Shown here: positions 1,092 to 54,867 of the stretch, piece by piece
Layout: every line of letters starts with the position of its first letter
Numbering within the stretch: position 1 is the first letter of the stretch
From: Escherichia phage KEP4
Length of the DNA: 64,000 bases
Sequence record: PP047754
Reading direction: 5' to 3' (one strand)
Notes under the pieces: model-generated
Told to the model about the DNA's origin: nothing
What the model saw: the letters and a program-made list of their open reading frames with translations, nothing else
Database searches by the model: none
Program-made: the position numbers and the translations under genes

Positions 1092-2873
1092 ATGGCCACG
1101 CAAACAGTTCCTTCACTCGACGTCAGAGCATTTGAATACATTATTAAACAGCGAATGAAAGCTGATCCCACCTTTAAAGATTATGACTTTGAAGGTTCTG
1201 GTCTTAGTGCGATTATTCGTTTGTTGGCATCTGACGCGAACGCCATAGCCTTTATGCAAAACATGCTTAATGGTGAAGGCCATTTGAAGACAGCAAATCA
1301 ACGTTCAAACGTCGGTTTATCTGCTGCATTTCTTTCCTACACGCCTGACAACTATCGGGCAGCATACATGTATGTCAACATCAAAGTTACGCCTTATGAC
1401 GCCAGCACAGCCCCCAATGAGATCATCATGGATCGGCGCGTAATGTTCGTTGGGGCAAAAGACGGCAGTTCCTACAACTTTACTGTTGAGAAACCAGTGT
1501 CGGCAACGTTGACTGCAGACGGTTATTACATGTTCAACAATGTAAAGTTGATACAGGGGAATTGGTTGTACAAGACATATGATGTTGAAGGAAGCGCGAT
1601 TTCAACATATACGATTCCTTCTGGGAATGTCGATATCAATCATATGGTCGTGCAAGTACAAGAATCAGAGTCTTCCGACGTTTCGACGACATATCAACGT
1701 TACAACAGTCCATTTGATCTGAGCCAATATGCCTACCTGTATTTCGTAGAATTGGGTATTGATGGTCTGTATGTGTTTGAATTCGGAGATGGTTATCTTT
1801 CGCGTCGAGTAGAAGATGGGAACGTCATATTCCTTCAATACTTAGAAACTTCTGGTGCTGATGGGAATGATATCACAAGCCTGTCATCAGCGTCATCCAT
1901 AGGCGGGTTTAACCAGGTCGATGTAGAATTGGTTTCCGAACGTAGCGCAGGTGGAGACGATCCGGAATCTATTGAGGACACTAAACGGTTGGCTCCTTTA
2001 GCTTATCAGGCTGATGGTGCTGCGGTTACAGAAACAGATTATGGTGTATTGACTGAAAGGTTATTCTCCAACGTCTCCCGAGCTAAATCATATGGTGGTG
2101 ACACGCTGTCTCCTCCTGATTCTGGCTATGTTTACATCGCTGTTATACCTTCTGTTGGTGAGACACTTTCGGACGCTGAGAAGGCCGATATCGTTGCTGC
2201 TCTGGACAAGTATAATGTGGGATCTATTACCCCCAAAGTGGTAGACTCCGAGATCACATATATCCAAGTCTCAACGACTATATTTTGGGATCCGACTTCT
2301 ACAGTCTACGTTGAAGAACAGATGAAAGTTGTTGTTGGAAACAGTATCGTTAAATGGGGTGAAAATAATCTCGGCGGATTTGACCAATTGTTTGACAAAG
2401 AAATATTGCAGGAAGCAATTACAAAAATGGAGCGTTCTATTAACTCGAATATTACTTCGGTTGGTTATAAACGCCATTTCAAACCCGATTATGGAGTCTT
2501 AGACAGTTTTACATTCAGTTATGGAAGAAGTATCAAACCTGGTTCTGTGAAAATAACGGGGTTCAAACCGCTTCCTGCCGAGGTGGATTTCACTTACTAC
2601 ATGCGCGACAATAATGGCGATTTGAACATGTATAAAGTGAATAACAATGACACGACAAAAGAGTTTTTAGTTCAAAAAACAGGGGTTGTAGATTATGCAA
2701 ATGGGGTTGTAGACCTTCAACAGATCACAGTCTCCAACTATAACCCTGAAGGGGTGACCATAGTCGTGTTACCGGATGGACTGAACCAGAACATACAGGC
2801 TACACAAAACCAAGTATTCAAGATTGGTGATGTGGTTGTTACGCCAGAGGTGCGCTATGTCCAAAGATCTTAA
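1092..2873 (+). CDS. baseplate wedge protein (T4 gp6-like), tentative
   Basis: 593-aa ORF; track start 1041 is TTG, ATG at 1092 has GGAG 6 nt upstream; position at head of the baseplate/tailspike block; product by synteny and size only. Confidence 0.5.
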   Translation: MATQTVPSLDVRAFEYIIKQRMKADPTFKDYDFEGSGLSAIIRLLASDANAIAFMQNMLNGEGHLKTANQRSNVGLSAAFLSYTPDNYRAAYMYVNIKVTPYDASTAPNEIIMDRRVMFVGAKDGSSYNFTVEKPVSATLTADGYYMFNNVKLIQGNWLYKTYDVEGSAISTYTIPSGNVDINHMVVQVQESESSDVSTTYQRYNSPFDLSQYAYLYFVELGIDGLYVFEFGDGYLSRRVEDGNVIFLQYLETSGADGNDITSLSSASSIGGFNQVDVELVSERSAGGDDPESIEDTKRLAPLAYQADGAAVTETDYGVLTERLFSNVSRAKSYGGDTLSPPDSGYVYIAVIPSVGETLSDAEKADIVAALDKYNVGSITPKVVDSEITYIQVSTTIFWDPTSTVYVEEQMKVVVGNSIVKWGENNLGGFDQLFDKEILQEAITKMERSINSNITSVGYKRHFKPDYGVLDSFTFSYGRSIKPGSVKITGFKPLPAEVDFTYYMRDNNGDLNMYKVNNNDTTKEFLVQKTGVVDYANGVVDLQQITVSNYNPEGVTIVVLPDGLNQNIQATQNQVFKIGDVVVTPEVRYVQRS

Positions 2874-3711
2874 TAATGGACACAACGGGGTTAAGTATGA
2901 AACTCCGTTGTTCTACCAGAATGATTTCCCTCTGTTCATAGAATTTATGGACACGTTTTTCAATTGGCTGTATAGACAGCAGGGGTTCACTCAAGAAGAG
3001 ATCTTGGCATATCTGGCAGATACGTCTAGTTGGATGAATCCCGAGAGTGAAGATTCTCCGGTTAAACAGCTGATTGATTTAAAGGCTGACAAGACTCCAG
3101 GCTCAGAGGCCAAGGATTATTTGTCTGATAAATTCTTGGTTCGTACCTTTGAGAACATGATGGCTCTGGATGCCGAAGAACTTTTAGATGCCGACGGAAG
3201 GCCGCTATTGTCAATAGAAGATAAGAACAAACAGATAGATGACTGGTATAATGATTTTGGTTTCCAACGAACTGTTGATAAATCATTTCAGGAATTTGGT
3301 CATTTTATCCCAGTTGGTTCGGATTCTTTGCTGACGGCAACGGGAGACAGGTTCTCAGTTTACATTGAAGGAACGAAACGGAGAACGCTAGATCATCCAC
3401 GTTGGTTGAAACTGTTAAAACATATCTATAAAATCCGCGGAACCAAGAAAGCAATTGAATTGTTCTTTTGGATATATTTTGGTTGTCCAGTCAGTGTCTA
3501 TTTCCCAAAAGAGGAAATAGGCGGTCTGGATGGCAATTTTGAATGTGACGGTATGACAGGGATGCGTGATGACTATTATTATGATGAGTACACTTACGTG
3601 ATAAGAGTCCCAGGCGACGTATCTGATTTCGAAGGCGTATTTGAACGTGTCTTCCGTCAGCATTTCCATCCTGCTGGGTTTACTGTATTCCTAGAAAGTT
3701 CAAGGAGCTAA
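2857..3711 (+). CDS. putative baseplate/tail structural protein (284 aa)
   Basis: ATG at 2857 with GAGG 7 nt upstream, overlaps upstream gene by 17 nt; no motif recognised. Confidence 0.5.
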   Translation: MSKDLNNGHNGVKYETPLFYQNDFPLFIEFMDTFFNWLYRQQGFTQEEILAYLADTSSWMNPESEDSPVKQLIDLKADKTPGSEAKDYLSDKFLVRTFENMMALDAEELLDADGRPLLSIEDKNKQIDDWYNDFGFQRTVDKSFQEFGHFIPVGSDSLLTATGDRFSVYIEGTKRRTLDHPRWLKLLKHIYKIRGTKKAIELFFWIYFGCPVSVYFPKEEIGGLDGNFECDGMTGMRDDYYYDEYTYVIRVPGDVSDFEGVFERVFRQHFHPAGFTVFLESSRS

Positions 3712-4950: not shown

Positions 4951-7900
4951 ATGGCCAACAAACCAACACAGCCTCTTTTCCCTTTGGGTTTAGAAACTTC
5001 TGAGTCTTCGAACATAAAAGGCTTCAACAACTCCGGCACTATTGAGCATTCCCCTGGTGCCGTAATGACATTTCCTGAAGATACTGAAGTTACAGGTCTT
5101 CCATCTTCTGTGCGTTACAATCCTGATAGTGATGAATTTGAAGGTTATTACGAAAACGGTGGTTGGTTGTCTTTGGGTGGCGGCGGAATACGCTGGGAAA
5201 CGCTCCCTTACGCTCCCTCTAGCAATTTGTTAGAAGGTCGCGGCTATCTCATTAATAATACGACAGGGACTTCTACAGTGGTTCTCCCTTCCCCTACGCG
5301 CGTTGGTGATTCAGTTACAATTTGTGATGCCTATGGGAAATTCGCGACGTATCCATTGACTGTATCTCCAGCGGGAAATAACCTGTACGGCTCCACCGAA
5401 GATATGACGATATCCACCGATAACGTGTCGGCGACTTTCACTTGGTCTGGTGCCGAGCAGGGTTGGGTTGTTACATCTGGTGTTGGCCTCGGCCAAGGTC
5501 GTGTGTACAGTCGTGAGATTTTCACTCAAATTTTAGCATCTGAAACAAGTGCTGTCACTCTCAATACTCCACCAACAATCGTGGACGTGTATGCTGACGG
5601 AAAACGTCTTGCGGAATCCAAATATTCACTAGATGGGAATGTAATCACTTTCGACCCTTCTTTACCTGCCAGCACTGAATTGCAGGTAATAGAATATACT
5701 CCGATTCAGTTGGGCACTGGCGGCGGGGGTTCGGGCGCTTCTGCAATCACCTGGATTTACAATGGCGGATCCGCTATTGGTGGCGAAACCGAAATAACGC
5801 TAGATATCGTTGTAGATGATGTTCCGGCTATTGATATAAACGGGTCTCGTCAGTACAAAAATCTTGGATTCACGTTCGACCCATTGACGAGTAAAATCAC
5901 TCTGACGCAAGAACTGGAACCAGAAGATGAAGTTGTTGTGGTTATAAATGGGACACCAAACATTTATAACCAAATCGATCGTTCTTTACAGGAAGTTGCT
6001 CGCGCCTACAATTTTACAAATGCTCAAGTTATTTTGAGCAACGATTATACTTCTGTTCTGGATAATAAAGTCGTTATTTATGATACGACATCCCAACGTT
6101 CTTGGGGGATTCCATCTGGAATCCCAGCAGGTTCTACAGTGGTTTCCGTCAATGGGGATCAACTGAAGTACAAAAATGGATCAACTGAAACCACTGTTAC
6201 ATTGGTGAGTGTACCAGGTAGTGCAGAGAAATTGAAGAACGATCTGGCTTCAAACTCTGGTTCAGGTATGTTGAAAACTTCTAGAGGTGATACCGTAGAA
6301 GAAGAATTGACTTTCATTAATCAGAATATGGTCGTTCAAATTTCAGATTTCGCGAGTCTTAGAACTTTAGTGCCAGCCACAGCGGGTATCCGAGTCAAAT
6401 TGAAAGGTTATTATTCTGGTTCTGAAATCGGTGGCGGAGAATTCATTTCTGTCGCTGGAGATGCTGTTGATGATGCTGGGATGATTGCTCGAGTGTCAAG
6501 CAGCTTCTATTGGAAGAGAATTATCGACAAACACATTACTCCTGGCATGTATGGCATCAAAGGGAATCTTCCAGAAGATCCGGCAGTGAAACTGAACGCT
6601 ATGTTTACGGCTGCGGCTGCGGCTAACGCTTATGTCTTACTGAACGATGTCGACACTCTGGTCTGTAAAAGCCCTGTCGTGATTCCAGCACATTCATTAG
6701 TGTACGGCAACAAACGAACTATACTGAAACGTGATGCATCGTTGTCATATGCTAATGATTTCTTGACAATTATGAATGATTCATATGTCAAGGGGATCTA
6801 TGTTGATGGTAGCCGTTTAGATTCTCAGACTCCTCTAGAAGCAGTTTTGGTGCGTATCGCTGGGAATGTAACTATCCATAAGAGTGAGATCCGAAACAAT
6901 GCTGGCTATGGCGTTGTTGGTAACGCAGTCCCTGGTATTCGTATCACCAAGAACATTTTTTCCAACTTCGCCAAAGGTTGTGTAGCCATGTTTGGCGACG
7001 GAACAGCGACGAGTGATGATCTGCAAATTAATGATAACAGATTCTTTAACCTGGGCGCGGGAACCATTTATGTTGGCGGTTACTCAAACTTCCTTGTCGA
7101 CAAAAACGTCGGAAGAGGCACTTACGTGGGTTCTCCAGGAAACCGTCTGTATGTTGTGACCAATACTAACGGGACTATCACCCAAAGCGCTGGGCCAGAT
7201 TTTGGGCCATTGAAAACGGGTATGTTCTTTGTATTGCCTGGTGGTTCTGAACATATGATAACGGCGGTCAACAGCCTTACCAGTGTGACAGTAACCCCAC
7301 CACCGCCGTCGAACGCCACAGTTCGTGCAATCGCAGGGACAGGGGATCTTCTGGGCATCCAATCATGCTCCTACGGCACCATCAGCCGTAACAACCTGAC
7401 CGATTGCGTGACTTACGGAACTGGTGGAGGCACGATGGAGGGGAGCACTCTGGGTTGCAATTATGTCACTTGGGAAGACAACTTCATCCGCAACACAGGT
7501 AAGAACGGAATCAACGTCGGGCAATCAGGCGCTGGGGTTGCCACGTGTTCTATCCTGAGGAACACTCTGATACAGGTTGGTAACGGCGGTCAGGGTGTTG
7601 GCCCAGCGTATCTTCTGCCTTGGTTCGATACGCTAGGTATCGCTCTGTATCAGGGAAACCCAGGTTATATGGCGAATATGGACGTCAGTGATAACAACGT
7701 CTCTACATGGTCTGGCGATCTGAATGACGGCGCTGCTTGGTTTGGTATGAGCGGTTGTACGGAAGCCACTGTGACTTGTACAGGCAACAAATCTTCTGGT
7801 TATTCCGACGGCTATGTTCGTGGAGATATATTAGAAGTCACGTTGACAGGTTATGGTACAGGGGCGGCTGCGACTTCATTCGTTAGTGATGGTGAGTCTA

Positions 7901-46257: not shown

Positions 46258-46273
46258 CTGGAGTCGCTATATT

Positions 46274-47137
46274 ATGACAACTACATTTAATAAAAACGTG
46301 AGATTGAATTTGGCTTTTGGTAATGCGGCTGGAGATATTACAGCCCCTGACTTCGGTAAAATTCGCAATCAGGCCAAACTGGTTCTGGAAGAGACCCGCG
46401 AATTACTGGAAGCGGCTTATTTCGATCATGACATCAAACTTGAGCTGGTGGCAACTCCAAAAGAAGACACCGATGATGTTGATATGGATAAAATCCTGAA
46501 AGCCATCATGGACGCTCAGGGTGATATCACAACTGTTAATGACGGCGTGGCCCATATCGCTGGTTTTAATGGTGATGAATGTTTACAACGTGTGTTTGCC
46601 TCTAACATGAGCAAATTTATTCGCTCAGAAGATGAAGTCGGTCCGGCACTGGAATATTATTATTCACGCGGTTTCCCAGATGGCCAGTTACGCGTTGAAG
46701 GTGAATTCCCTCAGGCATGCATCAAAGTGAATGAGACTGTGATGTGGAATGGAAAAGAATATCCGAAAGGAAAATTCCTGAAAAACATGGCTGTGTTCAA
46801 AGAGCCTGATTTCTCTGATATGCTGACGAATACCCCTTCCCGTCAGATCAATGACATCGTTGCCAGCATGGCAATTGAAGAAGGTCAGGTATTTGTTGAT
46901 GATCTGAACGGCGTGGCGTTGGTATCTCCAAAAACGTTGGAAGTAATTCTTTCTATGGCAGTTGAAAAATCTTCTCGACCCGTAGATGTTAACGGCCAAA
47001 TTGAAAGTTATGTGCCAGCGTATATCATTAACGATACCAATATGCCTAAGCTGTGTGGGGTGTGGGGTGCTAATGTTCGTGTATACGCGTGCGCACCTGT
47101 TCAAAACACTGTGACACACCTCTCTCGCTTCGATTAA
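46274..47137 (+). CDS. hypothetical protein (288 aa); N-terminal EExxELLEA segment is MazG/all-alpha NTP-pyrophosphatase-like (weak)
   Basis: ATG 46274 (track start 46187 overlaps regA); LVLEETRELLEAAYFDHD. Confidence 0.5.
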   Translation: MTTTFNKNVRLNLAFGNAAGDITAPDFGKIRNQAKLVLEETRELLEAAYFDHDIKLELVATPKEDTDDVDMDKILKAIMDAQGDITTVNDGVAHIAGFNGDECLQRVFASNMSKFIRSEDEVGPALEYYYSRGFPDGQLRVEGEFPQACIKVNETVMWNGKEYPKGKFLKNMAVFKEPDFSDMLTNTPSRQINDIVASMAIEEGQVFVDDLNGVALVSPKTLEVILSMAVEKSSRPVDVNGQIESYVPAYIINDTNMPKLCGVWGANVRVYACAPVQNTVTHLSRFD

Positions 47138-47160
47138 TATAATCCGTTATTCACTAAACA

Positions 47161-47188
47161 ACAGAGGCTATAATGGCCTCTGTTTTTG
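47161..47188 (+). terminator. rho-independent terminator (acagaggc-tataat-ggcctctgt + TTTTTG)
   Basis: 8-9-bp stem, U-tract. Confidence 0.8.
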
Positions 47189-47206
47189 TATTCTAGAGAG
47201 GATACC

Positions 47207-48433
47207 ATGAAAGATAAACCGTGTGACATTCCTTATTGCGGTGTTCGGGAAGCTAAAATTAAATCTGCACATCCCATGTTAAGCCCATTCCATAAACAAC
47301 TCGCATACGAATGGATGAGCGAGCGCTATAAGATCCACGTGAGAAAGGACGTCCAGCGTCTTCCTGCTCCTTGGACGGATAATCCCATACTACGGCAGGT
47401 CAAGTTCTGTAACGTCCGGAGAGAGCACGACAGGCAGTCTCTTAACCTGATCAATAATATCGTCAAGAACGACGCTCTGAGCATGGCCGACAAAATGTTC
47501 AACTGTGTTCTGTTCCGCATGTTCAATCTCTGGGATCCGATCAAGGTGGCGCTCGAGGGCGCTATGACGATTTCAGACTTTGCTAAAATCAACCTGGACG
47601 AGACCCGCGCCCGTCTTCAGAAGTTTGAATCTGAAGGTGGTAAGATCTTCACCAACGCATTCAACACAGGCGGTCTAAAACAATGTCTGGCGTTCCCCGA
47701 ACTTGTTGTCAACCACAAGGAGCAGCGCTTCGGTGGCATGATGGTTAAGGTACACCGTGTTGGCCAGGGTGTCGTGGATGAATTGGATTACAAGGTCGCC
47801 AAGAAGCTGGTTGAAGAGAATCCTGGGGAGTACACCATTGAGGGTTGGGAGCCGTACATGCCAATGCGTGTCATCCGCTCTTTGAAGGCATTCGTCAACA
47901 AGTACCCCGATTACTTCAATGATCTTTTACGTCTTGACTCTCCGCTGAAAGTTTACCAGCGCATGTATGATGACATTGAAGGGCTTGGGCCATTCCTGGC
48001 ATATCAGATCTGGGTGGACTTCACATACATCCCTGAGTATCCATTCAGTGAGAATCATTTCACTATTGCTGGTCCAGGTTGCCGTGCGGGTATTGACCTG
48101 ATGTTCCTGGATAAGGACGGCATGACTCATGAAGAATGCATATTCTGGGTTCGTGATCATCAGTATCAATTGTTTGCTCAGTATGGTTATGTCCAAGAGC
48201 AGTTCTGGTCAGCCGAAGCGCCGGAAGATCAGTGCATGAACGTCATGCAGCTGGAGAACATGTTCTGTGAATTGAGCAAGTACACCCGCTGTGTTGAGGC
48301 TATCGAGAGAGGGGAAAAGCCACGCGGCAAGGTCGGTTATGATGGAGGCGGGAGATACAAAAATCGATGCGATGAAATTGTCCTCAATCGCGGATCGGTC
48401 AATTTATTAGATCGTTTGAAGAAACCTGAATAA
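47207..48433 (+). CDS. hypothetical protein (408 aa); speculative DNA/nucleotide-modification enzyme
   Basis: GAGAGG SD; Cys/His-rich N-terminus (CDIPYCG, KFCNVRREHD); no Walker motif; function not assignable by eye. Confidence 0.55.
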   Translation: MKDKPCDIPYCGVREAKIKSAHPMLSPFHKQLAYEWMSERYKIHVRKDVQRLPAPWTDNPILRQVKFCNVRREHDRQSLNLINNIVKNDALSMADKMFNCVLFRMFNLWDPIKVALEGAMTISDFAKINLDETRARLQKFESEGGKIFTNAFNTGGLKQCLAFPELVVNHKEQRFGGMMVKVHRVGQGVVDELDYKVAKKLVEENPGEYTIEGWEPYMPMRVIRSLKAFVNKYPDYFNDLLRLDSPLKVYQRMYDDIEGLGPFLAYQIWVDFTYIPEYPFSENHFTIAGPGCRAGIDLMFLDKDGMTHEECIFWVRDHQYQLFAQYGYVQEQFWSAEAPEDQCMNVMQLENMFCELSKYTRCVEAIERGEKPRGKVGYDGGGRYKNRCDEIVLNRGSVNLLDRLKKPE

Positions 48434-48546
48434 AGAATCGCGTTACTTCGTTCTTCAATAACTTTTTCAACGTATATATTGACCTCACTTTAACGACGCG
48501 CCCCGATAAGGGCGCTCACTTTGAACTGAAACAGGAAGACTATACC

Positions 48547-50562
48547 ATGGCAGAATTCAAACCCTTCGCAACGGCAGTTAATAACAACGTGCTGGCGATG
48601 TCCGCAACTGGTCTGTTCATGACCAATATCGATAAAGATGCTCTTTGGGATCTGTATCTGGCATCTTTCCCTGCTGGTACCAACCCGCTCTACCGTGAGC
48701 GTACTGAGCACGACTGCACCTGCTGTAAACAATTCATCCGTAACATCGGCGGTGTGGTCACCATCGACTCCGACCTGAACGTAATTTCTATCTGGGACAA
48801 CATTGATCTGGGTAATGAATATGACGTGGTGGCTGCGGCTCTTTCCGCGTATGTCAAACAACACGCAATCGTCGATGTTTATTTTAACGATTCTGCCAAA
48901 GTCGGCCTGTCTCACAATCACGAAATGAAAGACGGCAATGTCCGCACCTACAACCACTTCCACACCGACCTGCTGGGTAGCTATGTTCTGCGTCCGGACG
49001 CAATCGCTTCGAAAAAAGGTGAAATCCGCCAGGCTATTGAATTGTTTGAACGCGGTCTGCGTGAAATTACTCTGGAATCAGCTGAAATCGTTCTGGAACT
49101 GATTGACCAGAATTCTCTGTATCGCGGCGCAGAACACAAAGCAGCAGTGAAGGGATTTGTTGAAACCAAAAAGGCATATGAACAAATCCCCGAATCAGCC
49201 CGTTCTCTGTGGGCATGGCATACTGGATACCGTTCAAACAATCATGTTCCACACGGCATCCGTAACACAGTTATCGGCACTCTGCTGACAGATATCAGCG
49301 AAGGCGTGGAACTGGAAAAGGCTGTTAAATCGTTTGAATCCAAAGTTGCTCCGGCGAACTACAAACGTCCGACAGCGCTGGTTTCAAAATCCATGATCGA
49401 AAACGCTCAGAAAGAAGTTATTGCTCTGGGTTTGGAAGACTCACTGGCGCGTCGTTATGCGGTTTATGATGATCTGACAATCAACAACGTTCTGTTCGCA
49501 GATCTGGCTGCTCAGAAAGCGATGGATCCGTTTGCTCAGCTGGCTGCCGAAGTGAAAACTCCGACCAAGTCCCTGGAAAAAGTTGAAGAGATCAGCGTTG
49601 ATGATTTCCTGAGCAATGTTCTGCCAAAAGCGCATTCAATGGAAGTGCTTGTAGAGAATTCTCATACTAGCAACCTGATGTCCCTGGTTGCTCCGGCGAA
49701 CCCAGATGCGCCTAACCTGTTCAAGTGGAACAACGGTTTCTCCTGGTCTTACAACGGTGAAGTGACCGATTCCATTAAAGAACGTGTAAAGGCTGCTGGC
49801 GGTAAAGTTGACGGGTATCTGCGCGTTTCCTTGGCGTGGCACAATAACGACGACCTCGATCTGCATATGTTCAACAACATGGAGCACGTTTACTTCCGCG
49901 ATCGCCGCTCTATGACAGGTGCCCATCTGGATATCGATATGAACGGTATGGATGGTATTGATCCAAACCGCGCTCCGGTGGAAAATATCATCTTTACAGA
50001 TGAAAGCAAGCTGCGCGATGGTGAATACCGTTTCGAAATCCACAACTACAATCAACGTGAAAAAATCGACGAAGGGTTTGAAGTCGAAGTAGAATACAAA
50101 GGCGCAACGCATCGTTTCAGCCATCCTGGCCTGAAAGATCAGGGACGTATCACCGCAGTCATCTTGACTGTTAAAGACAAACAAGTTGTTGGCATTAAGT
50201 CCGAACTGGCTAATGTTGATAAGTCTAAAGAAGTTTGGGGTATCAAGACAGCGACCTTCCAGAAAGTACAGCTGGTCCTGAACTCACCAAACCATTGGGA
50301 TGGCGAGCAGACAGGCAACAAGCACGTGTTCTTCATCCTGGAAGGTTGTGCTAATCCTGAAGGTACTCGTGGTTTCTACAACGAATATCTGAAGCCAGAA
50401 CTGGATAAACATCGTAAGGTTTTTGAAATGTTGGGTAGTAAAATGAAAGTCCAGCCGAATGAAAACCAACTGTCCGGTCTGGGATTCTCGACGACGCAAC
50501 GCAACCATGTGTTCGTCAAAGTGTCCGGCGCGTTTAACCGTACTGTAAAAGTCATTTTCTAA
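48547..50562 (+). CDS. hypothetical large protein (671 aa)
   Basis: AGGAAG SD 8 nt upstream; TEHDCTCCKQF motif; no recognisable catalytic signature. Confidence 0.6.
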   Translation: MAEFKPFATAVNNNVLAMSATGLFMTNIDKDALWDLYLASFPAGTNPLYRERTEHDCTCCKQFIRNIGGVVTIDSDLNVISIWDNIDLGNEYDVVAAALSAYVKQHAIVDVYFNDSAKVGLSHNHEMKDGNVRTYNHFHTDLLGSYVLRPDAIASKKGEIRQAIELFERGLREITLESAEIVLELIDQNSLYRGAEHKAAVKGFVETKKAYEQIPESARSLWAWHTGYRSNNHVPHGIRNTVIGTLLTDISEGVELEKAVKSFESKVAPANYKRPTALVSKSMIENAQKEVIALGLEDSLARRYAVYDDLTINNVLFADLAAQKAMDPFAQLAAEVKTPTKSLEKVEEISVDDFLSNVLPKAHSMEVLVENSHTSNLMSLVAPANPDAPNLFKWNNGFSWSYNGEVTDSIKERVKAAGGKVDGYLRVSLAWHNNDDLDLHMFNNMEHVYFRDRRSMTGAHLDIDMNGMDGIDPNRAPVENIIFTDESKLRDGEYRFEIHNYNQREKIDEGFEVEVEYKGATHRFSHPGLKDQGRITAVILTVKDKQVVGIKSELANVDKSKEVWGIKTATFQKVQLVLNSPNHWDGEQTGNKHVFFILEGCANPEGTRGFYNEYLKPELDKHRKVFEMLGSKMKVQPNENQLSGLGFSTTQRNHVFVKVSGAFNRTVKVIF

Positions 50563-50600
50563 TTGATTTTGACCACAAATTCGTAATAAGGAACAATGAA

Positions 50601-50972
50601 ATGTTTGATCAAGCAACCCGTTTAAAACTGCGTTTCAACTCTAACAAAGGTCTGCTATCTGTTGAGCAGGTTTGGGATCTGAATCTGAACGCACTGAACG
50701 AGCTGGCGAAAGATCTGAGCCGTCAGGTGAAAGAAGCAGCCAGCGATGAAGAAGACTTCATCGGTGTGAAAAGCGCGGTCGATTCTCAGTTACAACTGCG
50801 GTTCGATATCGTGAAAGCGATCATCGGTGTTAAACTGAAAGAACGCGATGAAAGCGCGACCGCAGCAGAGCGTAAAGCGAACAACCAGGCGATCATGGAA
50901 CTGATCCAGCGTAAGAAACAACAGGAACTGGAAGGTCTGTCTGTTGAAGAACTGGAAAAACTCCTGAAATAA
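50601..50972 (+). CDS. hypothetical helical protein (123 aa)
   Basis: AAGGA SD; predicted coiled-coil C-terminus. Confidence 0.5.
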   Translation: MFDQATRLKLRFNSNKGLLSVEQVWDLNLNALNELAKDLSRQVKEAASDEEDFIGVKSAVDSQLQLRFDIVKAIIGVKLKERDESATAAERKANNQAIMELIQRKKQQELEGLSVEELEKLLK

Positions 50973-50992
50973 TCTGACGGCTCCGGCCTGAG

Positions 50993-51020
50993 AAACCCCG
51001 CCGTGTGCGGGGTTTCTTTT
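50993..51020 (+). terminator. rho-independent terminator (aaaccccgc-cgtgt-gcggggttt + CTTTT)
   Basis: 9-bp stem plus U-tract closing the 47207-50972 unit. Confidence 0.85.
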
Positions 51021-51031
51021 GGACAAAAATC

Positions 51032-51442
51032 ATGAAATCTATTACGTGTGATTACTGCGGTCAACCTGCCCAATACGTCGGGTGTGATGTTGTATACCCC
51101 CACCGCCCCGACCTCCGCAATCTGAAGTTCTGGGTATGCTCGCCATGCGACGCTCGTGTGGGTTGCCATACCCATGGGGATGGTAGACAACCTCTGGGAA
51201 GGATGGCGAATGCCGCTCTCCGTGCTGCTAAGCAGGAAGCTCATAGATCGTTTGACCCTATCTGGAAAGGTGGGCAGAGGAGCAGGAGTGATGCTTACAG
51301 CTGGCTGGCTCATAATCTGGGGATCAAGAAGCGCGATTGCCATATCGGCTTGTTCGATATCGATATGTGCCGTAAAGTAGTCGCTGTGTGTAATCAACTA
51401 AAGGCACAAGATAATGTCAAAGGAAATACAAGAAGCATTTGA
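51032..51442 (+). CDS. zinc-ribbon protein (136 aa)
   Basis: CDYCG...C(x)VGC and CSPCDARVGCH Cys clusters; ATG 51032 (track start 51005 is GTG inside the terminator). Confidence 0.5.
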   Translation: MKSITCDYCGQPAQYVGCDVVYPHRPDLRNLKFWVCSPCDARVGCHTHGDGRQPLGRMANAALRAAKQEAHRSFDPIWKGGQRSRSDAYSWLAHNLGIKKRDCHIGLFDIDMCRKVVAVCNQLKAQDNVKGNTRSI

Positions 51443-52383: not shown

Positions 52384-52650
52384 TTCTTCAAAAGTCTTTC
52401 AAAATCAATAACGTCCGGCAAAATGCTGGGCGTTTCAATTAATAAGCCAAGGTATAATGGCCCAACTGAAAACGCGGGGGAATTTCTTTGTCCAAGCCAT
52501 TCATTCGTTCCGGAGTTGATTCTCTAGACTCCCAATTTAAGCCGAGCGAAGTTTTAATCCAACAAATTGAAACCAATCGTGAATTCATAGAACACATGTT
52601 GGCAAAGCCGGAAGGTGAAGCCGCTCAAACCACCAAAGAAGGTAATAACG

Positions 52651-54867
52651 ATGATTGAATCATTAACATTTAAAAATGCGGTAGCAACCGTCGCGCCGTC
52701 TAACCATGTAATCGTTGTGGATATCTCCGGTTCCATGTACCGTTCACTTCCTGAAGTTCGCAAGCATCTGAAGGAAAATCTCCCGTCTCTGGTTAAACCA
52801 GAAGATACCGTCAGCATTCTTTACTTTTCATCCCGTGGTGATTTCGGTACGGTATTCGCTGGCCGTCAGATCAATAGCGCGACCGATCTCAGTGAAATCA
52901 ATAAACTGATTGACCGCTTCCTGCAACCGTCCGGTTGTACGGGATTTGTAGAACCTCTGAAGTTGGCTGCTGAAACCGCGTTGAGCCTGAACAAACCTGG
53001 TTATGTCAATAACCTGGCGTTCATGACCGACGGCTATGACAACTGCTGGCGCTCTAATGAAATTCTGGCAGCAGCTGAAGTACTGCCCAAGGCGTTCGAT
53101 AATATTACATTCATCGAATATGGCTGGTATTGTAACCGCGAACTTCTGGCTCTGATGTCCGAGCGTTCTGGCGCGACTCACGTGTTTGCCGAAGGTCAGA
53201 CTGAATATCAGACCGAACTGGAAAACGTACTGAAATCATCTACGCCGAAAGTGGTTGTTGATGTTCCCCTGGTTTACACTCATGCCATCTACGTTGAAAA
53301 CGGCGTGGCAACTGTGCTAGCCGTACAACCCGATGAAGAACACCCGATTGGCCACGTCAGCATCCCTGAAAGCGTTTCTCAGCTGTGGGTTGTAAACCCT
53401 AACATGATCGACCAGCTGGATAATCTGGCAGACACCCAGGCGGCATACGTGCTGGCATTCTATGGCGTGTACACCATGGACGCCGATCTGGTCTGGGCCG
53501 CGCTGAAGAAGACGGGTGACGTCCGCTTCATCAAACAATACAGCAACTGTTTCACCAAGCAGGACTATTCCAACATCAAAGTCGATCTGACCCAGGCTAT
53601 CGTGGATGAAACTCTACGCGGCGTAGATGGCATCGATTACAATATGGTTCCAGCTGAAGATGCAACGACCATTGTTGATGTCTTGACCTACCTGGCCGAA
53701 GCCGATGTCTCTGTTGTCACTAAGCATCCATTGTTCTCTTACAACAGCATCGGTCGCGGCACTGTGCAGAAAGTTGATGACACTGAAGACAAGCTGGCTG
53801 AACAAATCGCCGAAGCCAAAACCAAAGCAGAGCGTAAAGCGCTGGCTCTCAAACTGGCTGAGCACGAAGATTGGACACCGGAATTTACTCCGGTTGATGA
53901 CAAAGGGATTGTCCCAATTAGCAATCTGGTCTACAATTCAGAGCGCCCTAACATCAGCATTCAGACCGTTCAGCATGGGACGGTTGTTGTGCCGGAGTTC
54001 GTACAGAAGAAATATGAACTCCCTGAAGAACTGGGAACCTGGCGTTATCGTAATTACACCATCGTCAAAGATGGAATCATCAACCTGAAGACGATGCCGA
54101 TTACTGCCGAATCTCCGATTGTCCGAGCTAAGGTTGTCCAAGATTTGATCGCCATGGGCGTTAATGTATTTGGTGGACCGGAAATCTTCATCGTTAATTT
54201 AGAAAGCGTTCCGATGGTCAACCGCGCCATGACCAAGAACATCAGTGCTGCCGAATTCTTCGCTGACAACGTTCGTCGCGAAGCGCTGAAGGCAAAACAG
54301 AAAGTTCTGAAATTCTATCGTGATGAACTGGTTGGCAAAGGCAATGCAACTGGTCTGGCTTCTAAATATGGTAAAGAAGCCGCCGATTTCTTGTCGGCAA
54401 ATGGCATTCGCGACTACGGGTTCTCGCCGAAAACTACTTCTGTGGAATCAACCGATGTCTACATGAGCCGTGAGCTGAATGTGAAAATCAAAGGTGCTTC
54501 GTCGCTGCCGAGCATTGCGTCAGTTATCAAAAAGCAAGCAGATGGTAAAAAACTGAATGTCGCTGATCAGTTGATTGCCAATGCTTTGGCCGAATACGAC
54601 GCTTTTGTTAAATCGCCAATGATCACCAGCGTACCTGAAGAGACTCAGAAAAAGCTGATTGAAAGCTGGATCGGGGACGCAGCAAAAGCGGCCATTAACG
54701 AAGTCCGCGCCCTGAACAAAACTCTGTCTAAAGTAGTTTACGGCATCGTCGCTGGTCATGGTTGGTTCACTGATTTGGATCTGGAAGAGTCTACGATGGA
54801 TGTAGAAGTTGATGGGGTGAAATACACCGTCACTGCCGAACTGGCCGAAAAAGAAATCAAAATCTAA
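52651..54867 (+). CDS. von Willebrand factor A (vWA) domain protein, 738 aa
   Basis: N-terminal MIDAS-type motif VVDISGSM with downstream TDGYDN; track start 52615 is GTG; 267-bp untranslated region upstream. Confidence 0.65.
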   Translation: MIESLTFKNAVATVAPSNHVIVVDISGSMYRSLPEVRKHLKENLPSLVKPEDTVSILYFSSRGDFGTVFAGRQINSATDLSEINKLIDRFLQPSGCTGFVEPLKLAAETALSLNKPGYVNNLAFMTDGYDNCWRSNEILAAAEVLPKAFDNITFIEYGWYCNRELLALMSERSGATHVFAEGQTEYQTELENVLKSSTPKVVVDVPLVYTHAIYVENGVATVLAVQPDEEHPIGHVSIPESVSQLWVVNPNMIDQLDNLADTQAAYVLAFYGVYTMDADLVWAALKKTGDVRFIKQYSNCFTKQDYSNIKVDLTQAIVDETLRGVDGIDYNMVPAEDATTIVDVLTYLAEADVSVVTKHPLFSYNSIGRGTVQKVDDTEDKLAEQIAEAKTKAERKALALKLAEHEDWTPEFTPVDDKGIVPISNLVYNSERPNISIQTVQHGTVVVPEFVQKKYELPEELGTWRYRNYTIVKDGIINLKTMPITAESPIVRAKVVQDLIAMGVNVFGGPEIFIVNLESVPMVNRAMTKNISAAEFFADNVRREALKAKQKVLKFYRDELVGKGNATGLASKYGKEAADFLSANGIRDYGFSPKTTSVESTDVYMSRELNVKIKGASSLPSIASVIKKQADGKKLNVADQLIANALAEYDAFVKSPMITSVPEETQKKLIESWIGDAAKAAINEVRALNKTLSKVVYGIVAGHGWFTDLDLEESTMDVEVDGVKYTVTAELAEKEIKI

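Follow-up and report, generated by a model that had tools for sequence, protein, structure and literature searches.

A thymidine hypermodification gene and a DUF8224 gene pair as probably independent neighbours in the ViI-like Escherichia phage KEP4

Three genes on the + strand of Escherichia phage KEP4 (sequence record PP047754), located at 47207-50972 of the 64-kb stretch of DNA that was analysed (the window), were investigated by computational means. The initial annotation had described them as a terminator-delimited unit of unknown function and had guessed at a role in DNA modification or anti-defence. The open reading frames (ORFs) of 408, 671 and 123 amino acids (aa) that it listed on the + strand are present exactly as given. 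They encode the orthologue of Salmonella phage ViI gp160 (47207..48433, ATG start), a protein of the DUF8224 family (PF26675; 48547..50562) and a small helical partner of DUF8224 (50601..50972). The evidence favours, with fairly good confidence, a division of 47207-50972 into two functionally independent modules, namely the hypermodification gene gp160 and a cassette of DUF8224 and its partner. The 'three-gene unit' is an accident of adjacency in this lineage, its genes being perhaps co-transcribed, because the pair occurs where the gp160 search gave no homologue, decays in Dickeya phage Ds25CZ while gp160 stays, and is separated from gp160 by extra genes in some relatives. The source phage is a ViI-like Kuttervirus: around the three genes, 4 kb of sequence are 97.5% identical in nucleotides (nt) to Salmonella phages ISTP3 and SE14, and 281 phage records, nearly all from Ackermannviridae, match this stretch.

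The 408-aa protein was found to match PF18723 (HMUDK_hel, the helical domain of 5-hydroxymethyldeoxyuridine (5-hmdU) DNA kinase) with an E-value of 1.4e-83 and 281 bits against a cutoff of 25, its residues 31-367 covering profile positions 5-280 of 281. The earlier statement that none of the three proteins has a recognisable signature is therefore wrong for this one, and the aGPT-Pplase family proposed there for testing proved positive for gene 1, PF18723 being aGPT-Pplase clade 1. The absence of Walker motifs was borne out, as no Walker A motif is present in any of the three proteins, whereas the description of the 408-aa protein as Cys/His-rich holds only weakly (Cys 2.7%, His 2.2%). In ViI, Vi01_130c (orf00160) occupies the corresponding place after regA and the MazG-like gene. 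KEP4 gene 1 is 94% identical to it over 408 aa, and the order clamp loader - regA - MazG - gp160 is identical in the two phages. Judged by sequence and position, gene 1 is the orthologue of ViI gp160: it shares the length, the upstream regA and MazG-like genes and the downstream DUF8224 gene, and nothing substantive differs. ViI gp160 was listed as 'aG/PT-PPlase1' by Lee et al. 2018 in their Table 3 (PMC5889632). The identification of gene 1 as a hypermodification-family gene is thus correct and already published, and because it is the published gp160 it needs no new hypothesis. Homologues of gp160 were found in 400 phage records, only in Ackermannviridae and in Vibrio, Microbacterium and M6-like Pseudomonas phages. 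Klebsiella virus vB_KpnM-20 has a homologue that carries the product name 'phospholipid-lipopolysaccharide ABC transporter'.

The pathway to which gp160 belongs has been reconstituted. Five recombinant ViI lysates (gp67, gp160, gp226, gp243 and gp247) jointly turned 5-hmdU DNA into 5-(2-aminoethoxy)methyldeoxyuridine (5-NeOmdU) (PMC5889632), and the kinase was assigned to gp67/gp243, the serine transferase to gp247 and the decarboxylase to gp226 (PMC8989533). In vitro, phosphorylation by the kinase alone reaches only about 23% of 5-hmdU (PMC8989533). Among the ViI proteins, gp67, a 220-aa P-loop protein encoded beside thyA, maps to PF18748, gp243 to PF18747 and gp247 to PF18724 (amino acid:DNA transferase, ADDT; aGPT-Pplase clade 2), and gp226 has a pyridoxal phosphate (PLP) enzyme fold. 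That gp160 is itself the kinase was considered and ruled out, the ViI kinases gp67 and gp243 mapping to PF18748 and PF18747. None of the genes for gp67, gp243, gp247, gp226 and the ThyA-like protein was found within the window, and in the near-identical ViI reference genome they lie outside the corresponding region. The verified 5-hmdU kinases gp67 (locus L001, 8204-8866) and gp243 (locus L085, 21620-22534) are mis-annotated as 'terminase small subunit' and 'guanylate kinase' in RefSeq and PHROGs.

The second and third genes follow a different distribution from gp160. Proteins of the window were compared by tblastn with 80 viral-contig loci and two metagenome contigs containing DUF8224 (82 phage loci). 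A homologue of the partner, which is recognised by phrog_2018, by its adjacency to DUF8224 and by alignment, stands next to DUF8224 in 76 of these loci, nearly always directly downstream and with a median gap of about 32 nt. In contrast, gp160, MazG and regA are neighbours of DUF8224 only in the 16 Ackermannviridae loci. Clustering of all neighbouring ORFs in the phage loci gave no other conserved neighbour, and a Pfam scan of 124 phage neighbours returned heterogeneous replication and repair genes. The same pairing was found in bacterial chromosomes. A search of GTDB genomes confirmed 132 candidate stretches as DUF8224 relatives, and 80 loci were kept, mostly from Micromonosporaceae, with others from Myxococcota, Sericytochromatia and Bradyrhizobium; the partner follows DUF8224 in 78/80. 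Synteny is not conserved beyond the pair in bacteria, where genes for transporters, regulators and other housekeeping functions surround it (131 neighbours, Pfam). No consistent enrichment of Ter, vWA (von Willebrand factor A), ligase or defence genes was seen among the 124 phage and 131 bacterial neighbours in Pfam.

DUF8224 is encoded in 558 of 50,697 phage records (about 1%), including phages of Bacillus, Caulobacter (phiCbK), Ralstonia (phiRSL1), Acinetobacter (ME3), Microcystis (Ma-LMM01) and Cellulophaga. Clustered at 50% identity, the family has 4503 representatives with E<=1e-3, of which 1240 reach E<=1e-30. Nearly all of the 150 best extend over the full length (about 650-715 aa), with identities of 40-52%. 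An identity of 40-50% is maintained across phages of Proteobacteria, Firmicutes, Cyanobacteria and Bacteroidota as well as actinobacterial and myxobacterial chromosomes. The family name was taken from the homologues: the 671-aa protein gave no match in the Pfam copy used, which lacks the PF26675 model, and 119 of 120 listed homologues carry PF26675 (the exception is one fragment), one representative being 96% identical to the KEP4 protein. DUF8224 and its partner had no match in Pfam, NCBIfam or PADLOC, and their PHROGs matches are families of unknown function only. No mention of the DUF8224 family was found in the papers that were searched. By its distribution in sequence databases, the pair is a self-contained cassette, present in Caulobacter, Bacillus, Ralstonia, Acinetobacter, cyanobacterial and marine phages for which the gp160 search gave no homologue, and also on chromosomes of Micromonosporaceae and Myxococcota. 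The strict pairing and the broad spread through phages and bacteria make this cassette a well-defined experimental target and the part of the region worth following up.

In one relative the two modules have come apart. Dickeya phage Ds25CZ (Limestonevirus) retains only fragments of DUF8224 covering residues 1-275 (locus L173, 3501-4340) and the partner is gone, while regA, MazG, gp160 and the vWA protein are intact. The cassette is dispensable in this phage, since DUF8224 is reduced to fragments and the partner deleted. The spacer between gp160 and DUF8224 (48434-48546 in KEP4) is moreover an insertion hotspot. Two close Kutterviruses carry at this junction a 135-aa Cys-rich zinc-ribbon ORF (locus L005, 5497-5904) and a 383-aa ORF (locus L009, 4730-5881), the latter read as a putative homing endonuclease, and Ds25CZ has a 786-nt gene there (2605-3390). 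The gp160 gene is itself variable in close Kutterviruses (L005-L008, 4295-5497; L009, 3447-4670), with only 78-83% aa identity and differing C-terminal tails, whereas the flanking MazG and DUF8224 genes of the same loci are 99-100% identical. This mosaicism suggests allelic replacement or diversifying selection acting on gp160. In the ViI reference sequence (locus L002, 6301-8320), DUF8224 is annotated as two coding sequences, Vi01_128c and Vi01_129c, reflecting either a frameshift or a sequencing error.

The strong flanking terminators reported in the initial annotation are real. Upstream, between the MazG-like gene and gp160, an intrinsic-terminator-like hairpin on the + strand (47160..47194) has an 11-bp stem, a 3-nt loop and a T-rich tail; its stem at 47160-47184 is followed by TTTTTGTATT, and it was picked up by a consensus scan. 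The fold of this hairpin as RNA has a free energy of -15.9 kcal/mol (z -3.5 against shuffles). Downstream, directly after the partner gene, a second such hairpin on the + strand (50990..51022) has a 12-bp GC-rich stem, a 5-nt loop and UUUU. It was missed by the consensus scan; its fold (50990-51018) reaches -26 kcal/mol (z -3.9), and 0/200 shuffles were as stable. With a GC-rich hairpin, a U-tract and a stability above that of shuffled sequences, both sites have the predicted features of Rho-independent terminators. Terminator-like sites in the 10-kb region are not more frequent than expected by chance (9 found, 8.4 expected), so the case for termination rests on the strength and the placement of the two hairpins and not on enrichment. 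In phiCbK, a terminator is annotated at the same position, after its own DUF8224 and partner pair. Between the first two genes, the 113-nt KEP4 spacer holds only a GC-rich hairpin without a U-tract (about 48495..48517 on the + strand; -16.3 kcal/mol, z -3.2). With this hairpin between genes 1 and 2 and the extra genes at the same junction in relatives, a functional unit is not supported.

The role of gp160 was approached through its conserved motifs. Across 28 homologues with identity down to 43%, the invariant elements are LGPFLAYQ (about residues 260-267), GPGC292 and E350-N-x-x-C354-E355-x-x-K358-Y359. The ADDT proteins (ViI gp247, M6 gp51 and PaMx11 gp46, PDB 8Z2M) are paralogues of gp160 found in the same phages; they flip 5-phosphomethyldeoxyuridine (5-PmdU) out of DNA, and their activity depends on a Cys and a Glu. 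A Cys and a neighbouring Glu are essential in M6 gp51 and ViI gp247 (PMC8989533), and the active site in the crystal structure of PaMx11 gp46 consists of Glu243, Thr244 and Cys247 (PMC11472151). ADDT and gp160 share the motif E-[TNH]-x-x-C-x-x-x-K and the helix motif G-[PD]-[WF]-x-[GA]-[FY]. In Pseudomonas phage Ab20, HMUDK_hel and its ADDT paralogue align over 123 residues (BLASTP), pairing REVEHTLCEFDK with QEVETILCKWK and YLGDFMAYEV with FGPWIGFKV. In this marginal alignment, E350-x3-C354 of gp160 corresponds to the Glu...Cys dyad of ADDT (Glu243/Cys247 of PaMx11 gp46). The PF18724 (ADDT) hidden Markov model (HMM) did not match gp160 even at E<=1, a profile built from the 28 gp160 homologues failed to retrieve 8Z2M, and the hhalign probability for gp160 against gp247 was 0.1.

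The difference from ADDT is that gp160 is tied to the kinase by fusion or coupling and would not act after it. In phrog_800 (511 positions), the gp67 kinase matches 4-220 and gp160 matches 373-479, and therefore kinase-HMUDK_hel fusions such as SP10 gp186 belong in that family. Ab20 (locus L172, 5426-6882) has a PaMx11-type cluster encoding ADDT, a flavin adenine dinucleotide (FAD) enzyme, a P-loop kinase, HMUDK_hel and a ThyA-like protein. Its kinase gene ends at 5995 and its HMUDK_hel gene starts at 5992, so that stop and start codons overlap, which suggests translational coupling. PF18723 is in this way linked to the kinase by fusion in SP10 gp186 (phrog_800) and by codon overlap in arrangements of the M6/PaMx11 type (Ab20), whereas in ViI-like phages the gp67 and gp243 genes lie tens of kb away and gp160 adjoins the MazG-like gene. 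In the known pathway, the P-loop kinases gp67 and gp243 phosphorylate 5-hmdU in DNA, gp247 moves serine onto the phosphorylated base, and gp226 decarboxylates the product to 5-NeOmdU. For gp160, a role as a DNA-binding and probably base-flipping partner of the 5-hmdU DNA kinase is proposed. Because the Glu-x3-Cys dyad of the transferase paralogues is retained, it may also be more than an inert scaffold and act chemically, through its cysteine, on 5-(phospho)hydroxymethyluracil. It may set how much thymidine, or which thymidines, become hypermodified. The invariant Glu-x3-Cys and the repeated fusion or coupling to a 5-hmdU DNA kinase make such a role testable.

An AlphaFold2 model of DUF8224, calculated from a 40-sequence alignment (mean predicted local distance difference test score, pLDDT, 82.7; predicted template modelling score, pTM, 0.52), shows an N-terminal alpha/beta domain (residues 1-145), a helical part (150-300), a disordered linker (327-344) and beta-rich middle and C-terminal parts. 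Paralogues of about 540 aa in Pseudomonas phage PaBG and Xanthomonas phage DoCa6 lack exactly residues ~400-565, and the small ORFs 3' of them have no detectable homology to the partner. Because this segment is missing there, the TerD-like beta-sandwich at about residues 400-565 (nt 49744-50241, + strand) is seen as an insertion into a core formed by the N-terminal region (residues 1-395; nt 48547-49731, + strand) and the conserved C-terminal domain (residues 566-671, + strand). The modelled insert has the TerD beta-sandwich fold, a likeness at fold level only. Its acidic residues D436, D438, D462, D464 and E479 are conserved, which is suggestive of Ca2+ binding and goes no further than that. 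Compared with the Ca2+-binding beta-sandwiches of the TerD/DUF2135 type, the insert has no significant match to a TerD or DUF2135 HMM and is missing from paralogues, and the rest of DUF8224 has no counterpart in Ter systems. In all seven aligned sequences, C57, C60 and H137 (Cys-x2-Cys...His) are invariant, as are R52, R169, K208, R239, Y272, R274, R302, R303 and W584. The first three probably form a metal site; alternatively, C57 and H137 could be a putative catalytic dyad of the papain/OTU-like kind. No convincing structural match was found for the N-terminal region, and searches of PDB sequences with phmmer and with profiles gave only chance-level matches for all three families. Foldseek against BFVD matched DUF8224 only to uncharacterised viral proteins. 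One of them is A0A1V0SEF2 of the giant virus Indivirus ILV1 (624 aa, Foldseek E 4e-7), a structural relative by which the DUF8224 superfamily reaches beyond phages and bacteria. The partner has the N-terminal motif A-x-R-L-K-L-R-F-x-T-x-K-G-L-L-S-V-E-Q-L-W-D-L in the alignment. A weak resemblance of its residues 2-29 (50601-50690; K-L-R-F-x-T-x-K-G-L-L-S-x-E) to the RGxxE region of 1puz, which we take to be a protein of the SdhE/DUF339 type with the RGxxE motif, had an E-value of 0.54 and was set aside as probably due to chance.

The alternative that all three genes form one operon-encoded DNA or nucleotide modification pathway, to which DUF8224 and the small protein would contribute further hypermodification enzymes, draws on the two strong terminators that bracket the genes, the only hairpin in between having no U-tract, on the order MazG-gp160-DUF8224-partner kept in 16 Ackermannviridae loci, and on gene 1 truly being a hypermodification-family protein. 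It is nevertheless judged highly improbable. The gp160 search gave no homologue for most of the phages and bacteria that have DUF8224 and its partner; the pair has decayed in Ds25CZ with gp160 intact; relatives carry insertions of unrelated genes at the gp160/DUF8224 junction; and the five ViI lysates that sufficed for 5-NeOmdU contained neither DUF8224 nor the partner (PMC5889632). The original guess at DNA modification thus holds for gene 1, as gp160 with its PF18723 match, and is unsupported for genes 2 and 3, whose cassette occurs where the gp160 search gave no homologue. Anti-defence functions are neither supported nor excluded for these two genes; in PADLOC-DB v2 none of the three proteins matched at E<=0.1. 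The two modules are proposed to share an early or middle transcription context in the ViI-like phage, genes 2 and 3 being an autonomous, horizontally mobile two-gene cassette whose products most likely act as a complex.

A number of points weigh against the two-module division and the roles assigned within it. The three genes are adjacent in 16/16 sampled Ackermannviridae viral-contig loci, and since all of these keep the adjacency, a lineage-specific functional link is possible. Co-transcription of all three genes in KEP4 is plausible, because two strong terminators bracket them and no terminator with a U-tract lies between. The proposed role of gp160 is unproven and non-essential in vitro: the 5-NeOmdU steps were demonstrated using purified preparations of the kinases, gp247 and gp226, the 2021 study (PMC8989533) does not list gp160 in its table of enzymes, and the SP10 kinase is active without its C-terminal domain. 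The alignment of clade 1 with clade 2 is marginal (E 0.011, a single pair), with no hhalign or 8Z2M profile signal. The metal site of DUF8224 is read from conservation, any catalytic or binding activity of this protein is a prediction, and for its insert no TerD Pfam match was obtained in 40 DUF8224 members at E<=10, with an hhalign probability of 0.2 against the TerD of ME3.

For the function of the cassette, the reading put forward, tentatively, is that of an uncharacterised, self-sufficient two-protein system moving horizontally between many tailed-phage families and bacterial chromosomes. It may perform an undescribed function linked to nucleic acids or nucleotides, such as conflict, exclusion or repair. 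DUF8224 would depend on a metal, bind nucleic acids or nucleotides and work with its small partner, as an accessory protein for the phage that has no part in DNA hypermodification; confidence in this specific mechanism is low. A lead towards the Ter systems came from Acinetobacter phage ME3 (locus L087, 2756-11443), in which the pair (gp177 and gp178) lies immediately downstream of a complete Ter-type operon, a single case, with genes for a vWA protein, a membrane protein, TerD, a phosphoribosyltransferase (PRTase), a haloacid dehalogenase (HAD) protein and a second PRTase. Ter operons have been described by the Aravind group (PMC7824862). The pair could be a Ter-type stress or exclusion component, or a derivative of one, whose TerD-like domain senses Ca2+ or a nucleoside-like signal and which phages use against superinfection or host stress. 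This is unlikely, given that no TerD signal exists at sequence level, that paralogues without the TerD-like insert place it outside the protein core, that the surroundings of the pair are free of Ter genes in phiCbK, the other phage loci and the bacterial loci alike, and that the vWA neighbour is confined to Ackermannviridae. An equally doubtful alternative is that the pair takes part in repair or in the processing of nucleic-acid ends, for instance as an aid to ligases or polynucleotide kinase (PNK) against host nucleases. DNA ligase genes lie within a few kb of DUF8224 in 13/66 non-Ackermannviridae loci, and in DoCa6 the DUF8224 paralogue precedes PNK and ligase genes, but ligase and PNK-type genes are common in phage early regions generally, the neighbours in bacterial loci are ordinary housekeeping genes, and searches for a nuclease, ligase or kinase motif or fold were negative. 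The remaining reading, in which DUF8224 would be a DNA-directed RNA polymerase or a virion structural protein, is barely credible. The product name 'DNA-directed RNA polymerase' is used in NC_049495 (Se-B), MW006480 (GEC_vB_N6) and KY652726 (BIS47), yet it finds no support in Pfam, NCBIfam, PDB sequences or fold, and the predicted secondary structure is that of helical and beta-sandwich domains; by these predictions a polymerase is effectively refuted. A virion role fits poorly with the place of the pair among housekeeping genes in bacterial chromosomes and among replication genes in the window.

The surroundings of the three genes are those of a replication region. Upstream on the + strand, the order is sliding clamp, clamp loader (329 aa and 140 aa), regA (154 aa) and a MazG-like gene. 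The last encodes a predicted nucleotide pyrophosphohydrolase of 288 aa (46271..47137, + strand) with an EETRE motif at residue 40, and its match to phrog_2144 (E 7.5e-136) bears out the earlier suggestion that the ORF 3' of regA is MazG-like; it adjoins gp160 in every Ackermannviridae locus examined (16 loci and Ds25CZ). In T4, the order is clamp - clamp loader - regA - gene 43. The remark that the three genes occupy the place of the T4 DNA polymerase remains a positional observation only, the ViI DNA polymerase being located elsewhere, beside gp243 and gp247. An Rfam scan of the whole window returned no RNA family. Downstream of the three ORFs follow a DUF3268 zinc-finger protein (51029-51442), an 83-aa ORF, a protein of the gp49/66 family and a 750-aa vWA-domain protein (52615-54867), which neighbours DUF8224 in Ackermannviridae only. 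A few loci from outside Ackermannviridae (L051, L083 and L084) likewise have relatives of the DUF3268 protein within roughly 1-3 kb of DUF8224.

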